A stretch of 64,000 nt of DNA, from positions 98,231 to 162,230 of IMG/VR virus record IMGVR_UViG_3300045988_177552. One strand, written 5' to 3'. Position numbers and translations under genes: made by a program. Of this stretch, positions 2,447 to 36,940 are shown piece by piece. The notes beneath the pieces are model-generated. The model searched no databases and was not told the DNA's origin. It saw only the letters and a list, made by a program, of their open reading frames with translations. This DNA is from a virus. Each line of letters starts with the position of its first letter. The stretch's first letter is position 1.

Positions 2447-3508
2447 TTATAAATCTCCGCCCTTAATATATTCAACGATCAACTCAATACAGGCCTCCAC
2501 GTCAGTCCAACGTACAACTTCCACTGGAGTATGCATGGATCTGTTCGGGATACTCAAGAGAAGGGTTTCACAATCAAAGGATCTTTCCTGAATCCTTGAT
2601 GTATTTGTTCCTCCTGCCCTAGAGACGCCAACTTGATACGGAATTTCCTTCTCCTTGGCAACCTTAATGAGTTTCTCTGCTATTCTCCTACTCTTTCCAG
2701 GTCCAAATTCAATAACGACACCTTTCCCAAGCTTGACATCACCATACTTCGCCTTGGATATTCCGAATTCATCCTCAGTCGATGGAGTCACGTCTATGTC
2801 AATTGAAATGTCCGGATTAACTCTTGAAGCGACAACACCAGCACCTCTAAGTCCTGTCTCTTCCTGTGCCATTGCTGCTCCAATCAGATTTATCCCCTTC
2901 AAGTCATTATCCCCTAGCCTGGACATAACCTCCTCAGTGATATAAACTCCAATCTTATCATCGGTAGCCTCCGAAAGGATGAAATCTCCACTAGGTCCCC
3001 AATCAAGGTTCTCTAATCCTTTCTGAAATACGCAGAGACTTCCAATTCCTATCCCCAAGGATTCAACCTCTTCTTTATTTCTGCATCCCAAGTCAAGAAG
3101 AAGATCACTTACCTTTACCACTTTCTCGTATTCATCATCCTCTTGAACATGGATCGGTTTATAAGAGATTGCCCCAAGGTAGGATGTCCCATTTGATGTC
3201 AAGACCTGTAACCTTGAACCCGGCAGGACTCTTCTATCTTCTCCGGACAGGCAGGTAATATTACAAAATCCTCCTTCCGTTATGTTTGTTATCATGAAAC
3301 CAAGCTCATCAATGTGGCCTGATATCATAACCTTCTTTCCTCCCTTGTCTCCTTTTCGGAATACGCAGTTATTGAAGCTATCCTGGAAGAGAAGTTCACT
3401 ATTCCCTTCCATTTGTCTTTTGAATACCTCTACTCCACGTCCCTCGTCTGACGTTGGGGTTGGTGTTAGTAAGAGGTCTAGTAAGAAATTTTTATTATTC
3501 TTTTTCAT
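2447..3508 (-). CDS. M42-family aminopeptidase (FrvX/glutamyl aminopeptidase-like)
   Basis: 353 aa; MISGHIDELGFMI motif and overall layout typical of M42 peptidases. Confidence 0.55.
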   Translation of the reverse strand: MKKNNKNFLLDLLLTPTPTSDEGRGVEVFKRQMEGNSELLFQDSFNNCVFRKGDKGGKKVMISGHIDELGFMITNITEGGFCNITCLSGEDRRVLPGSRLQVLTSNGTSYLGAISYKPIHVQEDDEYEKVVKVSDLLLDLGCRNKEEVESLGIGIGSLCVFQKGLENLDWGPSGDFILSEATDDKIGVYITEEVMSRLGDNDLKGINLIGAAMAQEETGLRGAGVVASRVNPDISIDIDVTPSTEDEFGISKAKYGDVKLGKGVVIEFGPGKSRRIAEKLIKVAKEKEIPYQVGVSRAGGTNTSRIQERSFDCETLLLSIPNRSMHTPVEVVRWTDVEACIELIVEYIKGGDL

Positions 3509-3729
3509 ACTTCTTTAAATTTGTTTTTAAAGTCCTCTCTTTCTCTGACATATATACTTCCGCCTAGTTCAGTATCCTGGTACATTACTGCCTCAAACCA
3601 TCTTCTTGTTGTTGGATCTTTAGCAGTACATAAGCCAAGAACTTTATATTTTCCATCATGACTTAATCCCGTCTTAGGATTAGGTGTTTGATCTCTGAAC
3701 TCCACTATGGTTCCCTTGTCTGTAATCAT
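3505..3729 (-). CDS. hypothetical small protein
   Basis: 74-aa ORF tightly packed between neighbours. Confidence 0.3.
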   Translation of the reverse strand: MITDKGTIVEFRDQTPNPKTGLSHDGKYKVLGLCTAKDPTTRRWFEAVMYQDTELGGSIYVREREDFKNKFKEV

Positions 3730-6470
3730 TGTATAGCCTCCACTTTTGGTTTATCCTCTTCTATTGTAATTACGAACTTTGTTGCATCAGGTGTCCTAAG
3801 CATTTCATCGCTGACTGGTTCTACGACATACTTGATTATGTTCTTCTGTAAGTCTCTAGCACCAAACTTCTTATCAACCTTCCCAATGACAAACTTCCTA
3901 ACATCTGGATTGACTTTAATACCAACCCTCGTCTTGTTCAGGTTTCTTCTCAGCTTATCCAGCTCGATATTGAAGATCTTCTCCAGTTCAGCATCCCCAA
4001 GTGAGTTGAAAATCAGAATCGATGATAACCTACCTAAGAATTCCGGCCTGAAATGCTTCTCGACACTCTTCATTACAATACCACGATCCTTATTTCTCTG
4101 ATCCTCTTCTGATACTGAACCGAAGCCGATATTAAGAGAGGTTCCGAGTTCCTTAGTTCCTATATTACCTGTGAAGATAAGAACGCAATTTGTAAAGTCT
4201 ACCAACATACCATCAGCCATCTTACAGTAGCCTTGATCTGTAATGCTAAGAATAACATCCAGGATTTTTGGATTAAACTTCTCAACCTCATCAAACAAGA
4301 CTACCGACCTCTTATGCTGCCTAACCTTATTGAAAATTGCACTAGAGAAGTCTCCATGACCAACATAGCCAGCTGGAGCACCGATAAGCTTTGACAATGA
4401 ATGCTCCTCTTTGAACTCTCCACCATCAATCTTAATAAGGTCATTTCTACTACCAAAGAAGATATCCGCTACCTCCTCTGATATTAAGGTCTTACCAACT
4501 CCAGAAGGTCCTATAGCCAAAACACTGCATATCGGTTTTCTCTTATCCCTGATTCCTAAGGCGTTTAGTTGAATAGCCCTAGTGAATGTATCGATAGCTT
4601 CCTGTTGACCAATGACTCTCCTTTCCAATTCCTTCTTCATCAAGGCAATTTTCTCGTTGTCCGTCTGATTGATCTTATCTACAGGAATCCTAGACACCTT
4701 ACTTACAGCTGCTGCCACATAGTCTTTTGTCACCTCAGGCCAGTTCTTTCTCTTATCACCAGTTTTCTCATCTTTCTCCAACTGTGCTCTAAGGGCTTCT
4801 TCCTCAGCCTTCAGTTTTTCTCCAAGCTCAAAATCCATATCTTGGGTTACGGCCTGAATTTTCTGTTTCACCAAGTCAGCAATCTTAGCTTTCAGTTCAG
4901 CATTTTCATCCGTCAAGTTGCTGAGGAATGCCAAAGAACCAGCCAAGTCCATGACATCAATCGCTTTGTCAGGGAAGTTCTTATCACTTATATACCTATC
5001 AGACCACTCAACGCAAAGTTCTAGTGCTGCCTTAGTATATCTGACATGGTGATAAGACTCGTAGTGGGACTGAATACCCTTGAGAATCTTGAAAGTCTCT
5101 TGTACGTCGGGCTCTTCAATCTCTATCTGTGTAAACCTCCTATTCAGGGCAGCATCTTTCTCAATATACTTGTGATACTCTTCTACTGTAGTGGCTCCTA
5201 TACACTGAAACTCTCCTCTTGCAAGGTATGGTTTGAGTATATTAGCTAAGTCACCAGAGCCTGAAGATCCTGCATTGACAATATTATGAAGCTCATCAAT
5301 AAAGACGATGATTTCTCCCTTATGCTCAATGACCTCCTTAATGATTTTCTGGATTCTCTCCTCGAATTGACCACGATATTGAGTTCCAGCAATCAGGTCA
5401 TTTATATTAAGAGCACACAGCCTAATTCCCTTCATCCTCTCAGGAACCTCGCCAGCGACAATTCTCTGTGCAAGTCTTTCAACAATAGCACTTTTACCTC
5501 CACCGGCAGGTCCTGTTATTACGACTGAGTTCTTTTTTCTCTTGTTCAGGATTTCAACGATAGAATCTACCACAGAATCACGTCCTATTACAGAATCAAA
5601 CTCCTTTCTCTCAGCTTTCTTTGTATAATCAACTCCGAAACTGTCAAGAATTGGAGTATCACTGTTAGGATCTACCTCTGTTCCACTAAAGGCCTTTGAA
5701 TTTCCGTATTTTTCGAAGTTCTTCTCATCTTCTTCATGAGTATTCTTCTTCTCGTCTATCTCTTTCTTAGCCTCCTTCATAGCTTCTTTGGATATTTCCT
5801 CCAATTTCTTCTTATCCATTCCAGTAATAGATGATAAGAGATCTGTTACTTTAGAAGTTAAGTCATCTGTATAGTCTTCGGCAGCCTGTTTCCTATACTC
5901 GAACATGATTTTCTCAAGTTCCTCCTGAGATATATAGTCCGATAAGAGGTCTGAAAATTTACTATAGCCCTCACTTAAGACACAGAATAGAAAAACATCA
6001 GTATCAATTTCTCCAAGTCTCTCAGGGAATGACTTATTTGTGAACTCCAGAGCTGCTTCAAGTACCTCTGAAAGCTCTTCATCTGTTACGATTCCTCCAC
6101 CAATAGCAAACTCTTCAGGAATATTCTCTAAGTCTTGAAGCTGTGCAGATTGTTCGAGGAAAGTAAGCAAGTTATCCTTCATTTTTTCTGGTACTTTGCT
6201 TAGCAACCTAGTAAGAACAGTCTCCCTATTCTGTCTACATGTGATAAGTGGAAACAGAAGACGACCTACAACATCGACAACAGTTATTACAGGCCTATGA
6301 TTCCTCTCAGCGAATGCATAAGTCTCGGACATTACTGTTTTCAAATCTTTCGATAATCTAAATTCTTTTTTCTTTTTCATATTTAATTTGAATCTTTTGT
6401 TCATTAATAGGGATTTCACGTGTTCACAGTAGCAATTTTTACACCTTTTCCTTCTGTCTTCACCATCCAC
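3726..6470 (-). CDS. Clp/Hsp100 two-domain AAA+ ATPase (ClpA/ClpC-like unfoldase) with about 300-aa novel N-terminal region
   Basis: D1 Walker A GPAGGGKS, Walker B FIDELH; D2 GPSGVGKT, LFDEVEK; NIGFG loop resembling the ClpP-docking IGF loop; start probably at 6380 (MKKKKEF) or 6404 rather than 6470. Confidence 0.8.
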   Translation of the reverse strand: MDGEDRRKRCKNCYCEHVKSLLMNKRFKLNMKKKKEFRLSKDLKTVMSETYAFAERNHRPVITVVDVVGRLLFPLITCRQNRETVLTRLLSKVPEKMKDNLLTFLEQSAQLQDLENIPEEFAIGGGIVTDEELSEVLEAALEFTNKSFPERLGEIDTDVFLFCVLSEGYSKFSDLLSDYISQEELEKIMFEYRKQAAEDYTDDLTSKVTDLLSSITGMDKKKLEEISKEAMKEAKKEIDEKKNTHEEDEKNFEKYGNSKAFSGTEVDPNSDTPILDSFGVDYTKKAERKEFDSVIGRDSVVDSIVEILNKRKKNSVVITGPAGGGKSAIVERLAQRIVAGEVPERMKGIRLCALNINDLIAGTQYRGQFEERIQKIIKEVIEHKGEIIVFIDELHNIVNAGSSGSGDLANILKPYLARGEFQCIGATTVEEYHKYIEKDAALNRRFTQIEIEEPDVQETFKILKGIQSHYESYHHVRYTKAALELCVEWSDRYISDKNFPDKAIDVMDLAGSLAFLSNLTDENAELKAKIADLVKQKIQAVTQDMDFELGEKLKAEEEALRAQLEKDEKTGDKRKNWPEVTKDYVAAAVSKVSRIPVDKINQTDNEKIALMKKELERRVIGQQEAIDTFTRAIQLNALGIRDKRKPICSVLAIGPSGVGKTLISEEVADIFFGSRNDLIKIDGGEFKEEHSLSKLIGAPAGYVGHGDFSSAIFNKVRQHKRSVVLFDEVEKFNPKILDVILSITDQGYCKMADGMLVDFTNCVLIFTGNIGTKELGTSLNIGFGSVSEEDQRNKDRGIVMKSVEKHFRPEFLGRLSSILIFNSLGDAELEKIFNIELDKLRRNLNKTRVGIKVNPDVRKFVIGKVDKKFGARDLQKNIIKYVVEPVSDEMLRTPDATKFVITIEEDKPKVEAIQ
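6401..6427 (-). promoter_or_regulatory. promoter-like motif at the Clp ATPase start
   Basis: cattaatagggatttcacgtgttcac; near-identical core to 48957 and 708..729. Confidence 0.4.
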
Positions 6471-31238: not shown

Positions 31239-32771
31239 ATGATTACTTACATTATTTGTGGTGTAGTAGCAGTGCTATTAGTAGTGTTAATCTCAAGTAG
31301 TTATGTCAAAGCTCCTCCCTCATTTGCCTTTGTAATCTCTGGTCTCAATAAAGAGCCTAGGGTACTCATTGGCAAGGGCGGATTCCGAGTTCCTGGATTG
31401 GAGCGCCTGGACAAAGTGTATCTTGGCCAAATCACAGTTGACGTTGATACCGAAGGAAGTGTTCCTACAAACGATTTCCTCGATGTCATTGTATCATCTG
31501 TCGCTAAGATACGTGTAGTCCAGACTCCGGAAGGTATTAGGTTGGCTGCTAAGAACTTCCTCAACATGACATCTGAAAAGATCTCTGAGCAAGTTAGAGC
31601 AACTCTCCAAGGTAACCTCCGTGAAATCATTGGAACTATGGACCTCAAATCTCTTAACATCAACAGAGAGGGATTCAGTCAGGCAGTTACGAAGAGTGCA
31701 ACACCAGACATGGACAAACTTGGTATTGAGATTCTTAGCTTCAATATCCAGAACATCAGTGATAAGGACGGCTTGATTCGTGATCTCGGTGCTGACAATA
31801 CTGCTAGCATCAGGAAGGCAGCCGCTATCAATAAGGCTAATGCTACACGTGATATCAAGATTCAAGAGGCAATCGCTGAACGTGAAGCAAACGAGGCCCG
31901 TGTTGAAGCTGATACTGCCATCGCTGAGAAGAATAATGAGCTTGAGCTGAAAAAAGCGGCCTTGAAGAAACAGTCTGATGCAGCAAAGGCAGAGGCTGAT
32001 GCAGCTTATGAGATTCAGAAGCAGATCCAGCAGAAGACTATCAACATCTCAAAATCAGAAGCTGAGATTGAATTGAAGAAGCAGCAACAGATCATCTCTA
32101 ATGAATCAATCAAGATTAAGGAGAATGAACTTACTGCAACAGTCAACAAACAGGCTGAAGCAGACAAGTACAAGACTCAGGTTAATGCAGAGGCTGAGCT
32201 GGAACAAAGAAAGAGAAAGGCTGAAGCTGAGCGTTATGAAAAGGAACAACAGGCTGCTGCTAGGAATGCAGAGGCTGACGCTATAAGGTACGCTCAGGAA
32301 CAGAAAGCTCTTGGTATTAAGGCAGAAGGTGAAGCTGAAGCCGCTGCCATAGAAGCTAAGGGTAAGGCAGAAGCAGCAGCAATTGAAGCTAAGGCAAAAG
32401 CTGAGGCCGCTGGTATGAAAGAAAAAGCAGAAGCATTCAAGCAGTACAATGATGCTGCTGTAACTCAAATGCTTATCGATAAACTTCCTGAGGTTGCCAA
32501 TTCTGTCTCAAGTGCTATCGCTGGCATCAAGGGTATCAATATCTACAGTGCCGGAGGTGGCGATGGCGAAGGAGCTATCGGTTCAGTATCAGGCAATGTT
32601 CCTGTAGTGATCAAGCAGGTTTTTGACACTATGGAGAGCGTTACTGGAGTTCCTATGGCTGAACTCGTCAAGGCTCATACAATCGAGGCTAAGACAACCA
32701 GGAAGATTCAGGTTGATGATGCCCTGGCTGAAGTAGCTGATGAAATACTTGAAAGCGCTAAGAAAAAGTAG
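31239..32771 (+). CDS. SPFH/band-7 flotillin-like protein
   Basis: N-terminal TM helix, SPFH core, long EA-rich coiled coil (AEAAAIEAKGKAEAAA repeats); elevated GC. Confidence 0.7.
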   Translation: MITYIICGVVAVLLVVLISSSYVKAPPSFAFVISGLNKEPRVLIGKGGFRVPGLERLDKVYLGQITVDVDTEGSVPTNDFLDVIVSSVAKIRVVQTPEGIRLAAKNFLNMTSEKISEQVRATLQGNLREIIGTMDLKSLNINREGFSQAVTKSATPDMDKLGIEILSFNIQNISDKDGLIRDLGADNTASIRKAAAINKANATRDIKIQEAIAEREANEARVEADTAIAEKNNELELKKAALKKQSDAAKAEADAAYEIQKQIQQKTINISKSEAEIELKKQQQIISNESIKIKENELTATVNKQAEADKYKTQVNAEAELEQRKRKAEAERYEKEQQAAARNAEADAIRYAQEQKALGIKAEGEAEAAAIEAKGKAEAAAIEAKAKAEAAGMKEKAEAFKQYNDAAVTQMLIDKLPEVANSVSSAIAGIKGINIYSAGGGDGEGAIGSVSGNVPVVIKQVFDTMESVTGVPMAELVKAHTIEAKTTRKIQVDDALAEVADEILESAKKK

Positions 32772-32889
32772 CACTATTTAACAAAGAAGGGGACCTAAGA
32801 TTCGGGTTCCTTTCTTTTTTTTTATTTTTGCGCTTAGGAAGGTCTCATTGCTTTATTATTGGAAAGTAAAACATATAAATTTTTAAACT

Positions 32890-34764
32890 ATGAATGGAAG
32901 GTACGAAGACATTAATCAAATTGATTTGGTATTAAGTATGTTTAATCAATACCTATTCCAGGATTGTAAGAATAATATTGATGACTTGATATATTCTTAT
33001 CAGACTAATATGGCAACAAACGGCAATAGACTGGTAGAGTTACTCTTGGATTCAATAAAAAATTACACCCTGGATAATATTGGTTTACCATTATTTCAAA
33101 GCATCCTGGGGAGGTGTGGAAAAACTGGGCCTGAGAGTCAACAGATCATCAATAAGATCATAGAGTATAAGATGTACACTAAGGATCAGATTGAACCAAT
33201 GAAGAAATACGTTAAGGATATGATTGCTAAGACGTATATTCTCAGAGCTAATGATCGCTATAGTGATTCCCCTAGTGATTTCATAAACTACCTTAAGGGT
33301 GTAAACTTTAAATCTTCGGCTGTTGATTACTTGACATCTACGAAATTTGGAGATATAGATGTAAATTCAATCAAGGCGGAAGAACAAAACCAAGGAATTC
33401 CATCTTCTTTTGAGTGGATTAATCAAACTTTCCGCCCTGAATGTATGTATCCAAGGATGGGATTGTTCTGTGTTTCAATGCCTCCTGGTTGTATGGCAGG
33501 AGATACTGAGGTCTTTCTTGCAGATGGGACAGTAAAAACTCTGGAGGATCTCTATAAAAGCAAAAAGACAAATATTACGATCTATGCATGTGATGGAAAT
33601 GATCCAAAGGTTTCAGTAGCAGAGAATTGTCAGATCTCTAAGTACGTGAATTCCTGGTATGTAGTTGAGATTGATGGAAAGAAGGAATATAGGGTTACTG
33701 AAAACCACCCATTCCTAATGATAAACGGAGAATGGAAGAGGGCAGATAAGCTTGTTGAAGGTGATATTCTAATGACATTTAACTATAAGTCAGTAAATGA
33801 AAAAGTGATTCACACAATCACTAAGGTATATGTTGAGACCTTAAAGGAACCACAGCCAGTATATGACTTAGTAAATGTCGATCTCTATCATAATTATGCA
33901 GTAAAGTTCGACGAAACATCTGGATTCTTTAGCCACAACACTGGTAAGACCCTTTTCTGTATGCAAGAGTGTCTTTATATGTGCTTGAAAGGAAAGAAAT
34001 GTCATTATCTCTGTATGGGTGATATGACAGAATCCGACTTTATCATTCGTATGGCAGCTCAATATTTTGGAATCCCATTCTATGAGGCTAAAAGAAACTT
34101 CGATATCGTCTATGAAGAACTAAAGAAAGTCATAGGGGACAGACTTGAGATTACTTGTATTCCTGCCAGTGTTATTACAGTGGATGAATATATTGAATTT
34201 GTTAAGAGTAAGGACTATGATGTCTGTTTCTGTGATTATGATAGTCAGTTTAAATCTAATGTCTATACAGAATCAATGTACCTAACTTACGGTGATATCT
34301 ATGCTAAATTGAGTGAGCTTACGATACAGTATAAAAAACTAGTATTCATCTTAGCTCAGCCTATGAAAGCGTCTTGGTCTCTCCCTGTTATTGAAATTGA
34401 TCAGGTAGGTGAGAGTGCTAGGAAGATTCATGCCGTAGACTGGTGTTTGACAAGGGGACGTGAGCCTGGAAACTTGAATGGCTTGGGAATTTCTAAGATA
34501 GTTAAATCTAGACGTGGAGAGGAACAAGTTATAGATTACAATATTAGGCTGAACAACGGTAGATTTAAAAGTCTTCCTAGGGCAGTCTATGAGGATATCA
34601 AGCAGATTCCAGAAAAGAAAGACTATACAGAAGCTGAGATTGACAATATGATAAATAATTACCTTCAAGCTAGAGGACAGGTTCAGCAATCTATCAATAA
34701 TAAAATGGGAAATTCAGGAATAAACAATTCAGGACCTAATAGGAGAGGCGCGGCACCATTTTAA
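32890..34764 (+). CDS. RecA-fold replicative helicase (DnaB-like), intein-containing
   Basis: Extein junction restores PPG|TGKT Walker A; downstream VCFCDYDSQ resembles DnaB Walker B/DYLQ block. Confidence 0.55.
   Translation: MNGRYEDINQIDLVLSMFNQYLFQDCKNNIDDLIYSYQTNMATNGNRLVELLLDSIKNYTLDNIGLPLFQSILGRCGKTGPESQQIINKIIEYKMYTKDQIEPMKKYVKDMIAKTYILRANDRYSDSPSDFINYLKGVNFKSSAVDYLTSTKFGDIDVNSIKAEEQNQGIPSSFEWINQTFRPECMYPRMGLFCVSMPPGCMAGDTEVFLADGTVKTLEDLYKSKKTNITIYACDGNDPKVSVAENCQISKYVNSWYVVEIDGKKEYRVTENHPFLMINGEWKRADKLVEGDILMTFNYKSVNEKVIHTITKVYVETLKEPQPVYDLVNVDLYHNYAVKFDETSGFFSHNTGKTLFCMQECLYMCLKGKKCHYLCMGDMTESDFIIRMAAQYFGIPFYEAKRNFDIVYEELKKVIGDRLEITCIPASVITVDEYIEFVKSKDYDVCFCDYDSQFKSNVYTESMYLTYGDIYAKLSELTIQYKKLVFILAQPMKASWSLPVIEIDQVGESARKIHAVDWCLTRGREPGNLNGLGISKIVKSRRGEEQVIDYNIRLNNGRFKSLPRAVYEDIKQIPEKKDYTEAEIDNMINNYLQARGQVQQSINNKMGNSGINNSGPNRRGAAPF
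33490..33939 (+). other. mini-intein (150 aa, no endonuclease domain) inserted in helicase P-loop
   Basis: Block A CMAGDTEV, block B TENHPF, blocks F/G VYDLVNVDLYHNYAV...SGFFSHN followed by extein T. Confidence 0.7.
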
Positions 34765-34767
34765 ATT

Positions 34768-36153
34768 ATGGAAGAATTAATAAACAGCCCAGAGATGATG
34801 CTTAGACTAGATCTTGAAAAAGAAACCTACTCTAAGTATTATCACGACTTGGTAGACTACTGTAAAAACAAGTACCCAGGAAGAGATAAGTCTATTTATG
34901 TAGACTATCTTGAAGAGCATCATATTCTACCTCGGTGTATGGGAGGAAAGGATGAAGATAGCAACTTAGTACTAATGAACTATAGATGCCACGTCTTAGC
35001 CCATTGTTTACTATTTTTAATGGATCAAGACAGTAGAAGCTTGGCGAAAGCTGCTTGGTACATGTTATATACAGCAAATAACAATAGGGGAGGAAAGGAT
35101 ATAAATAGTTTAATATTAAGTTTCGAAAAATTTAAGGAAGAGTTATTTAATACGCTAAAGAAACCAATCGTATGTCTATCTTTAGATCTTAAGGTTGTAA
35201 AAATATACAAAGGAGTTCTAGAAATAAAAGTAGATGGTTTTTCTCCAAAACTTATGAGTCGAGTCCTAAAGAATAGGGAAATGCACAAAGGGTATCTGTG
35301 GGAAAGATTAGAAGATGTTGAAGATAAATATCCAGAAGAGATAAAAGAGTACTACAGAGACTTGGAAAATGGGAATGTTCGAACCATAAATAAAGATAAA
35401 ACTTGGATAAAAGAACAGACTACGCTGTACAGATCTCGATATAGACGAGGAAATAAGGGAAAAACCGTGGTTGGGTATGATGACGAAGTGTATTGTGTAT
35501 TTAATAATATATCCGTTGCCAAGAGACTAGGATTTTCTGCTTCAATTATAAGTTTAAACATAAACAATAAAGCTACAGTCAATAATGGGGGATACTCTTG
35601 GAAACTTATTAAATCAGATGACGACTTAAAAGATATCTCAAGTAGTAGAAAGAGAGTAGAAGAAATTCACCCTAAATCAAAAAGAGTTATCTGTTTTGAT
35701 AAAGAGAATAATAGAATTATTAAAATTTACAAAACACAAAAGGATACCGCAGCGGACGGTTTTGTTTATACTACTGTTTGTTCAGCTTTGGCAAGTGATT
35801 CTAGAAAATATTGTGGATATTATTGGTATCTAGAGTACGAATGGAAGGATAAAGATCTTCTAGAGGATTATAATAGAAGAGATGTTTTACCCGAAGTTAT
35901 TGTAAATAGGCCAAACGATCCCATAAAATTAGTTCAATTAAGTGAAAACCATAAGATTGTAAATGTATTTAGTAATCTACATGATGCTAAACCATTTGAC
36001 TATCGAGCATTAAGCAAGGTCCTAAAAAAGGAAGATAGGTTCTATAAAGGATTCTTTTGGTTTACAATGGATGAACTGAAAGTTAAATTTCCAAACATTA
36101 TAAAAGAATATGAAGAAAGAATTAAGTATAGTAATAACACTAGAAAAAATTAA
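34768..36153 (+). CDS. HNH homing endonuclease with repeated putative DNA-binding modules
   Basis: HHILPRCMGG...N...HVLAH HNH core; three repeats with G[YF]xW + acidic KYPEEIKEY-like blocks. Confidence 0.65.
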   Translation: MEELINSPEMMLRLDLEKETYSKYYHDLVDYCKNKYPGRDKSIYVDYLEEHHILPRCMGGKDEDSNLVLMNYRCHVLAHCLLFLMDQDSRSLAKAAWYMLYTANNNRGGKDINSLILSFEKFKEELFNTLKKPIVCLSLDLKVVKIYKGVLEIKVDGFSPKLMSRVLKNREMHKGYLWERLEDVEDKYPEEIKEYYRDLENGNVRTINKDKTWIKEQTTLYRSRYRRGNKGKTVVGYDDEVYCVFNNISVAKRLGFSASIISLNINNKATVNNGGYSWKLIKSDDDLKDISSSRKRVEEIHPKSKRVICFDKENNRIIKIYKTQKDTAADGFVYTTVCSALASDSRKYCGYYWYLEYEWKDKDLLEDYNRRDVLPEVIVNRPNDPIKLVQLSENHKIVNVFSNLHDAKPFDYRALSKVLKKEDRFYKGFFWFTMDELKVKFPNIIKEYEERIKYSNNTRKN

Positions 36154-36940
36154 GCTAATTTCAGTCAATGCACTATATAATGCAGGACTGATGTATAGGG
36201 GTGGGAGACCGGTACCTTATATATACAAATCTCCAGATGCTAAGAAGTTTGAGGCTATAATGGATGAACAACTTCGAGCATTAAACTGGGATGATCACAT
36301 TGAATGGCTAACTAATACTAAGCAATTCACTGTAACTCAGCAGTATATATTTAAGAGCGGTATTAAGAGCAGGGACGTCTCGAATGTTGAAAAACTATGT
36401 AGTGACGGATTTGTGCGCTTCGTTCGCTCTGAATTGGGTATAACTACCTTTGATGACTCATTATTTAGTGATGTCCATCTATATAAATCTATTATACCTG
36501 GCTCAACTAGGGAATATCTTTGTTTCAAAATATCCCCTTCTGACTTCAATATGCGATTTGATCAGATGGACAAGCCTGAACAGATCCTCTTTCACTTTGA
36601 GGGGGATTCGGATTGGGAAACGAAGGAATTCAAGAAAGGACTTAAAGATCTTGGTCTGAAATATCAATTATGTAATACCGACAAGAAGATAAAAGATCAT
36701 AATACCGATGTTTATTTCTTAGATTACCGAGATGAAAACTTTACGGAGAAGCTAATAGATCTCATGGATGTCTTATATTCAAAAAAGGACTCCGGTTTCT
36801 GCTATGTCGGAATCTTGGGGGAACCGAAAGAGAGCATCATAAAGAAAATTAATGACCTTGGTGGTAGTAATATTAAGGCCATTGGGATAGAAGAGCATAA
36901 AGATATTATAAGATTGTTCAAAGATGAAGATACACGTTAA
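36110..36940 (+). CDS. hypothetical protein
   Basis: 276-aa ORF. Confidence 0.4.
   Translation: MKKELSIVITLEKIKLISVNALYNAGLMYRGGRPVPYIYKSPDAKKFEAIMDEQLRALNWDDHIEWLTNTKQFTVTQQYIFKSGIKSRDVSNVEKLCSDGFVRFVRSELGITTFDDSLFSDVHLYKSIIPGSTREYLCFKISPSDFNMRFDQMDKPEQILFHFEGDSDWETKEFKKGLKDLGLKYQLCNTDKKIKDHNTDVYFLDYRDENFTEKLIDLMDVLYSKKDSGFCYVGILGEPKESIIKKINDLGGSNIKAIGIEEHKDIIRLFKDEDTR

Follow-up and report, generated by a model that had tools for sequence, protein, structure and literature searches.

The P-loop of replicative helicases (insertion point b in DnaB) harbours some of the most frequently encountered inteins (PMC4760082, PMC6195587), and homing-endonuclease genes are found in clusters around genes essential to phages (bioRxiv 10.1101/2023.03.23.533998). 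For introns, homing by collaboration and in trans is established (PMC2790892, PMC6083498). A free-standing endonuclease, F-CphI, accompanies a psbA intron devoid of an open reading frame (ORF) in cyanophage S-PM2, with comparable cases in T3/T7-like phages (Zeng/Bonocora/Shub 2009, via PMC6083498 and bioRxiv 10.1101/2023.03.23.533998), and T4 MobE mobilises a defunct nrdB intron, in a report whose authors explicitly extend the idea to inteins (PMC2790892). Here we analyse a stretch of 64,000 nucleotides (the window; positions 98,231 to 162,230 of IMG/VR record IMGVR_UViG_3300045988_177552) from an uncultured jumbo phage of gut metagenomes, in whose replication module an SF4 helicase gene carrying a mini-intein, a free-standing HNH endonuclease gene and a conserved gene, p276, follow one another on the + strand. 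A first-pass annotation of this DNA had raised the possibility that the intein and the HNH gene constitute a trans-acting homing pair. From a survey of related loci we favour, with a probability of about 65%, a plainer reading in which two ordinary and independent selfish elements lie side by side in an insertion hotspot, with no dedicated partnership between them.

The helicase gene (32890..34764, +) encodes a 624-amino-acid precursor of the DnaB/gp41-like (SF4) type, and the protein database holds 105 homologues of it from gut and rumen metagenomes, several with a match to Pfam DnaB_C; the C-extein, forming the C-terminal half, matches phrog_19 'DnaB-like replicative helicase' at an E value of 1.7e-18. 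As the first-pass annotation had proposed, the P-loop is interrupted by a mini-intein. Residues 201-350, a segment of 150 amino acids (33490..33939, +), match the Pfam profile Intein_splicing (PF14890) from end to end of the model (E 4.4e-10; 40 bits, with a cutoff of 35.8), and they lie between an N-extein of amino acids 1-200 ending in CVSMPPG (32890..33489, +) and a C-extein of amino acids 351-624 (33940..34764, +) whose first residue is the +1 Thr of TGKT, the remaining part of Walker A. The junctions read PPG|CMAGDTEV upstream and FFSHN|TGKT downstream, placing the insertion inside Walker A. The class-1 residues are all present, namely Cys201 immediately after PPG, block B TENH, block F VYDLVNVDLYHNY, and FFSHN|T with its penultimate His, terminal Asn and +1 Thr; the Cys is invariant in 19 of the 19 inteins extracted from this helicase family, and between blocks B and F of the window intein an endonuclease domain is absent. 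Deletion of nucleotides 33490-33939 yields CVSMPPGTGKTLFCM, which is the exact sequence of natural intein-free alleles such as P0001 (relatives are cited by P numbers for helicase proteins and L numbers for loci), in agreement with the earlier claim that excision restores a PPGTGKT Walker A. The P0001/L001 allele, which has PPGTGKT, is 96% identical to the window helicase, and the DNA alignment of the window with the intein-free alleles (P0001, L001, L002) contains a clean 450-nucleotide indel. About 20 of the 105 homologues are interrupted exactly at PPG|[T/C]GK[T/S], the others being contiguous. That the 150 amino acids might be a native helicase insertion is ruled out by the Hint blocks and by the 96%-identical intein-free allele. 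Since the catalytic residues are intact, the ratio of nonsynonymous to synonymous substitution rates (dN/dS) of the intein is 0.05-0.11 and the host gene is essential, we infer that the mini-intein splices; it must self-excise, by autocatalytic splicing, to restore PPGTGKT.

In these features the intein resembles the DnaB-b inteins, for example M. smegmatis DnaBi1 (Novikova et al. 2016, PMC4760082; Kelley et al. 2018, PMC6195587), which are likewise class-1 elements in the Walker A of an SF4 helicase, exist in mini and full-length forms and are sporadically distributed. It differs in that its host is a phage gp41/DnaB-like helicase, only distantly DnaB-like, and in that the insertion falls between the G and T of PPG|TGKT, the comparison made here being one of P-loop location; its sequence similarity to the solved DnaB inteins is weak (E 0.03-0.4). 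In terminases, the 'classic' intein site of the P-loop has been described as GK|T (PMC5050341).

Megablast with the region as query found no match among 50,697 phage records, and tblastn retrieved only distant helicases of at most 33% identity, indicating that no close cultured phage is represented there, while the location of helicase homologues on contigs of up to 373-400 kb points to a jumbo-phage lineage. We examined genomic context in 20 close or intein-bearing relatives and 147 further loci from IMG/VR and JGI (about 165 in all), and scored all of them with hidden Markov models for the helicase, the intein, the HNH family and the downstream gene p276. In the IMG/VR scan exact peptides gave zero matches and an alignment-based query succeeded.

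The two properties that define the F-CphI/psbA system, co-distribution of its elements and self-immunity, were tested on these loci and both failed. All four combinations were seen: intein and HNH gene together in the window, L020, L005 and L007; the HNH gene without an intein in L001-4, L006, L009 and L044; an intein without the HNH gene in L008/L106, L015, L016-18, L019, L094/L161 and L136; and neither element in many loci. With helicases collapsed at 95% identity as lineage units, the HNH gene was present in 2 of 8 intein-bearing and in 10 of 45 intein-free lineages (Fisher p=1.0). An intact PPG|[TS]GK stands beside a full-length HNH gene in four independent lineages (L001-4, L006, L009, L044), and L012-14, in which the HNH gene is a 99-amino-acid remnant, also keep an intact PPG|TGK; in L006 the HNH gene adjoining the uninterrupted PPGTGKT helicase is 83% identical to that of the window. 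A nuclease cutting the uninterrupted site would thus cut its own genome in at least four lineages, which argues against a strict homing partnership. Two near-isogenic pairs, L005/L001 and L007/L006, are 97-99% identical in DNA over 7-9 kb and differ only by the intein and a cassette of about 1.5 kb, described below. In both pairs the intein-free member has an intact P-loop next to the HNH gene; of the two intein-bearing members, one carries cassette type A and the other type B, and both types occur with and without intein. Given the independent distribution, the intact P-loops beside HNH genes and the existence of full-length siblings of the intein, the proposed trans-acting pair is not supported.

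The history of the intein can be followed in its relatives. A word-index protein search with the 150-amino-acid intein alone returned zero matches though homologues exist, and an exhaustive HMMER search used instead found 1258 relatives. The top match, P0118, is an 833-amino-acid helicase bearing a 369-amino-acid intein at the same P-loop site (amino acids 194-562), and its splicing domain is 77% identical to the window intein over shared columns (79% by HMMER). The window intein corresponds to the P0118 intein minus about 220 amino acids between FNYKS and HTITKVYVE, and the 280-amino-acid intein of P0045 is an intermediate with a partial deletion. Full-length inteins of 366-412 amino acids occupy the same site in L094/L161 (5595-6695), P0118, P0126, P0129, P0134 and P0144. 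By this alignment, the window mini-intein is evidently a deletion derivative of the same-site inteins of about 370 amino acids. Their domain of about 220 amino acids contains a conserved HH..N..N..H..H motif; searched in full-length and intermediate siblings, it had no significant match in Pfam, PHROGs, or PDB sequence or profile searches, its AlphaFold model was of low confidence, and the top Foldseek match of that model, an HNH domain, was non-significant. This domain may represent an undescribed intein-borne nuclease lineage. The free-standing HNH protein shows no similarity to it, and on this ground we reject a derivation of the HNH gene from the lost endonuclease of the intein.

Intein and extein identities are discordant. 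The inteins of P0045, P0068, P0091 and P0099 are 61-76% identical to that of the window and their exteins 37-53%; in the nearest helicase, extein identity is 94-97% and intein identity 85%. Such discordance indicates horizontal transfer of the intein, and the HNH neighbour is absent from L015 (P0045) and L019 (P0091), the two loci with distant exteins that were examined. Between the window and its closest relative, L020, the synonymous divergence (dS) of the intein is 0.57, about twice that of the flanking exteins (0.23-0.28), so intein alleles have seemingly been exchanged even between very similar genomes. In the comparison of L005 with L001, a divergence of 8-9% is limited to about -160..+66 nucleotides of the insertion point, with 0.2% farther upstream and 4-5% downstream, and this peak points to the footprint expected from a break at the intein site itself. 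Taken together, these observations fit the ordinary picture of a homing cycle, from full-length intein through nuclease-domain decay to mini-intein and loss.

The free-standing HNH homing-endonuclease gene (34768..36153, +; 461 amino acids) is located directly downstream of the helicase gene, where the first-pass annotation had placed it, its ORF beginning 3 nucleotides past the helicase stop; translation may in fact begin at the conserved MMLRL at 34795. The protein matches phrog_655 'homing endonuclease' (E 7e-23), and its catalytic motif, EEHHILPRCMGG...N...H..AH at amino acids 31-79 (34858..35004, +), matches Pfam HNH (PF01844) with 25.4 bits, above the cutoff of 21.4; in close relatives of the HNH gene this domain is 84-93% conserved. 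For the remainder of the protein three repeated modules had been claimed, and we found four, by profile-profile comparison and in the AlphaFold model (predicted local distance difference test score 76.6), where they form four beta-beta-alpha-alpha-beta units. Each module has about 60-70 amino acids and a terminal G-[YF]-x-W: M1 spans amino acids ~128-198 and ends in GYLW (35149..35361, +), M2, the most divergent copy, amino acids 228-290 ending in GYSW (35449..35637, +), M3 amino acids 303-372 ending in GYYW (35674..35883, +), and M4 amino acids 383-455 ending in GFFW (35914..36132, +). The mutual probability of M1, M3 and M4 in profile comparison is 97-98.5%, that of M2 50-84%, and that of the catalytic-domain control below 1%. 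None of the four modules matched a Pfam model; phrog_20162 matches amino acids 215-285, in the M2 region, and phrog_3855 'HTH DNA binding protein' matches amino acids 407-443, in the M4 region. In having an HNH domain at its N terminus and an extended DNA-binding region after it, the protein is similar to enzymes of the I-HmuI type, and I-HmuI (PDB 1u3e) is the best PDB match of the model in Foldseek, at a non-significant E value of 0.15; the four tandem G-[YF]-x-W repeats set it apart from I-HmuI.

Comparison of filled and empty sites shows where the HNH gene was inserted. In relatives without it (L008, L106, L010) p276 directly abuts the helicase gene with a gap of 3-11 nucleotides, and in loci that have it 1345-1436 nucleotides are inserted between the helicase TAA and the conserved TATAAAAGAAT-ATG of p276, the right border shared by filled and empty sites. 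The 99-amino-acid HNH remnant of L012-14 lies in the same slot, and together these observations identify the HNH gene as a mobile insertion. In the window p276 (36110..36940, +) overlaps the HNH 3' end by 44 nucleotides. The cassette that distinguishes the near-isogenic pairs (~35040..36500, +; L005 8117-9672, L007 3406-4994) comprises two parts, the DNA-binding region of the HNH gene, from about amino acid 95 to the end, and the opening ~130-150 codons of p276. Its types A, which the window carries, and B are about 55-60% identical in DNA and 42-45% in protein within surrounding genomes that are 97-99% identical, and the cassette is swapped as a block while the HNH catalytic domain stays conserved. 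The exchange of the DNA-binding half together with the 5' half of p276 suggests that the recognition site of the enzyme is at the empty helicase|p276 junction or towards p276. In the homing-endonuclease gene islands described by Barth et al. 2023 (bioRxiv 10.1101/2023.03.23.533998), unrelated homing elements likewise surround a replication gene and sharp identity breakpoints occur at the endonuclease gene; here, in contrast, one breakpoint lies inside the endonuclease gene, the catalytic domain staying in place as the DNA-binding half swaps with half of the neighbouring gene.

In the reading that we favour, the intein would have spread by site-specific homing, either before it lost its nuclease domain or via full-length siblings acting in trans during co-infection, and it would now be a polymorphic passenger held functional by purifying selection. 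The HNH gene would move on its own schedule, having inserted precisely between the helicase stop and p276, and the adjacency of the two would stem from the tendency of homing elements to accumulate around essential replication genes. A different course of events, for which MobE and the nrdB intron provide the precedent (Wilson & Edgell 2009, PMC2790892), is that the HNH enzyme cuts or nicks near its own gene in genomes that lack it or carry the other type and that repair drags the intein along; the repair tract would sometimes extend about 0.8-2 kb upstream, and the HNH gene would thereby aid the spread of the intein among close relatives. The locus has the required layout, a non-autonomous splicing element close enough to a free-standing HNH gene for recombination to span both, since 829 nucleotides on the same strand separate the intein end from the HNH start with no 14-bp terminator hairpin between them. 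Moreover, intein state and cassette type co-differ in both matched pairs, and in L005 versus L001 the DNA from -160 nucleotides of the intein site to the middle of p276 is more divergent (~95%, then 55% identity) than the backbone (~98%). This divergence, however, peaks at the insertion site and is not uniform as far as the HNH gene, and thus points to a break at that site, not at a distance as with MobE; in the L007/L006 pair the two differences are separated by 1.1 kb of background identity, which is uninformative. Such co-conversion is also at odds with the lack of association across lineages, six intein-bearing ones having no HNH gene, and with the movement of inteins into distant helicases without elevated C-extein identity, the two such loci examined, L015 and L019, having no HNH gene. 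We regard it as unlikely.

A stricter form of collaboration, in which the HNH enzyme recognises the uninterrupted P-loop, the intein confers self-immunity by disrupting that site and is copied in on repair, has the formal architecture of the S-PM2 and T3/T7 cases in its favour (PMC6083498; bioRxiv 10.1101/2023.03.23.533998), an endonuclease-less splicing element in an essential gene beside a free-standing endonuclease gene, the element here being an intein and not an intron. The P-loop DNA is a hotspot, where inteins of two classes and no fewer than two group I introns insert within ~12 nucleotides of one another in this helicase family, and in the matched pairs the codon at -1 is GGC in intein-free genomes with the HNH gene and GGT in those with the intein. 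Yet GGC also occurs in HNH-less genomes, which leaves no clean immunity signal; the intact sites described above stand beside HNH genes of both cassette types, including the 83%-identical one; and the DNA-binding region of the HNH protein co-varies with the downstream gene and not with the helicase. We therefore hold this form of homing to be very improbable. Comparably slim is the chance that the intein is retained as a conditional-splicing switch on the helicase, as proposed for mycobacterial DnaBi1 (PMC6195587), with the HNH gene irrelevant: the P-loop location would block ATP binding until splicing, and purifying selection on the intein is strong, but any intein in an essential gene is expected to be under purifying selection, genomes of 97-99% identity manage without the intein, and its distribution is sporadic with horizontal transfer. 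The gp41-type helicases with split inteins among fractured genes (Dassa et al. 2009, cited in bioRxiv 10.1101/2025.01.02.630785) share with our locus the type of host and a link between intein and free-standing endonuclease, and differ from it in that the intein here is contiguous and the endonuclease gene is outside the helicase gene.

Several points weigh against two independent elements. Both near-isogenic pairs differ in intein state and HNH cassette together, and linked transfer is possible; the HNH target may also lie in the helicase gene; and the nuclease-like character of the domain in the sibling inteins is based on a motif and on non-significant fold matches. In addition, a sister clade has members of the same HNH family downstream of helicases split by ORF-less group I introns. 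The HNH gene is present in 7 of 20 lineages with any self-splicing element versus 5 of 33 without (p=0.17), a weak positive trend that is non-significant and phylogenetically confounded. A bolder reading is that the HNH family, which lies downstream of this helicase in many jumbo gut phages, is a shared trans mobility factor for the helicase mini-intein and the compact ORF-less introns of sister clades; it would cut in or near the helicase gene, and repair would copy the passengers. We consider this distinctly improbable; if true, collaborative or trans homing would have its first case involving an intein.

The sister clade, phages of 230-400 kb, has its helicase gene in 2-4 ORF pieces, with inserts of 170-210 nucleotides at five positions. 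Examples are L072 (5548-5722), L081 (~5546-5746), L053 (5679-5849 and 6048-6223), L056 (5642-5844, 6038-6224 and 6440-6645) and L094 (6972-7212); further loci with helicase inserts are L043, L047, L053-L096, L138-143, L152 and L163, and gaps of 427-473 nucleotides in some loci are two introns in tandem. The inserts share the core motifs AAWTGC...TCAAYGACTA...GATATAGTC, and 98 of the 101 co-occurrences in 1.64 Mb of TCAAYGACTA followed by GATATAGTC within 120 nucleotides are inside helicase genes. The Rfam group I threshold was passed only by the L094 insert (70 bits), the others scoring 17-42 bits in 1.3-kb searches. Rfam at its gathering threshold missed the short inserts, as did an E-value run on 58 kb, and their group I-like identity is drawn from the 1.3-kb searches and the counting of core motifs only. 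On these grounds the inserts appear to be group I introns of one family, ORF-less and unusually compact.

Relative to the intein boundary of the window (33489/33490), the P-loop introns (L072 ~5560-5745, L081 ~5550-5760) are positioned 2 nucleotides downstream (GGC GT|A) and 10 nucleotides upstream (AT|G CCT CCA GGA), and L158 carries a 258-nucleotide insert without an Rfam match at the codon boundary used by the intein. In L157 (4090-5323) the same site is occupied by a Cys+1-class intein whose ORF runs off the contig end; it contains an insert resembling GIY-YIG (YLIYKITNKVNGKCYIG; below the cutoff of Pfam SegE_GIY-YIG at E 0.004), an endonuclease type uncommon for inteins. By their aligned positions, at least four independent splicing elements have apparently targeted the same ~12 nucleotides of P-loop coding DNA.

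Turnover is seen around the helicase gene as well. The slots flanking it hold other large variable ORFs in L016-18 (3411-4901), L056 (7416-8660), L047 (6829-8250), L042 (6601-8049) and L124 (687-1802), among them a 496-amino-acid HNH_3 protein upstream of the helicase (Pfam and PHROG matches) and, in L124, a member of the HNH family of the window, also upstream; in the downstream slot of relatives there are ORFs of 414 and of 473-482 amino acids. In L044 (6423-8429) the HNH family and p276 are matched by one and the same 668-amino-acid ORF, which appears to be a fusion of the two in frame. Some relatives have a 501-amino-acid gene immediately 5' of the helicase as one uninterrupted ORF, and others have it in pieces of 137 and 366 amino acids (L053/L056/L062 2437-4970 compared with L072 3465-4970), and in L056 and L062 a 267-amino-acid ORF (starting MTKSKQLKIEDL...) between the pieces suggests another insertion. 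A turnover-prone insertion hotspot flanks the helicase gene.

In the window itself, the gene 5' of the helicase (31239-32771) encodes a 510-amino-acid protein with a long, repetitive C-terminal half rich in Ala, Glu and Lys; its 511-amino-acid homologues in L001, L002 and L005 match Pfam Band_7 and Flot, and a gene of this type is unusual for a phage replication module. At the 3' side of this Band_7/flotillin gene a terminator-like hairpin with a 14-bp stem and a T-run (32783..32817, +) marks the predicted start of a helicase-HNH-p276 transcription unit. Between the helicase, HNH and p276 genes no hairpin with a 14-bp stem was found; the one further match on the + strand lies within p276 (36497-36511) and has a stem of 5 bp, and matches in total are no more frequent than expected by chance. 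A scan of the window for a second intein and for other members of the HNH family of 34768-36153 found neither.

Homing genes of the HNH type with modular DNA-binding tails, their clustering, and breakpoints at nuclease genes have all been described (PMC2988022; bioRxiv 10.1101/2023.03.23.533998), and both elements of the locus are of known kinds: it adds one member each to the P-loop helicase mini-inteins and to the free-standing HNH homing genes. Their metagenomic relatives amount to a natural experiment, providing near-isogenic alleles with and without the intein and with and without the HNH gene. Full-length, half-deleted and mini versions of the same intein would represent the homing cycle in stages, and inteins and putative compact group I introns appear to converge on the same ~12 nucleotides of P-loop DNA. 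Proof that the HNH enzyme nevertheless mobilises the intein would extend collaborative homing from introns to inteins.

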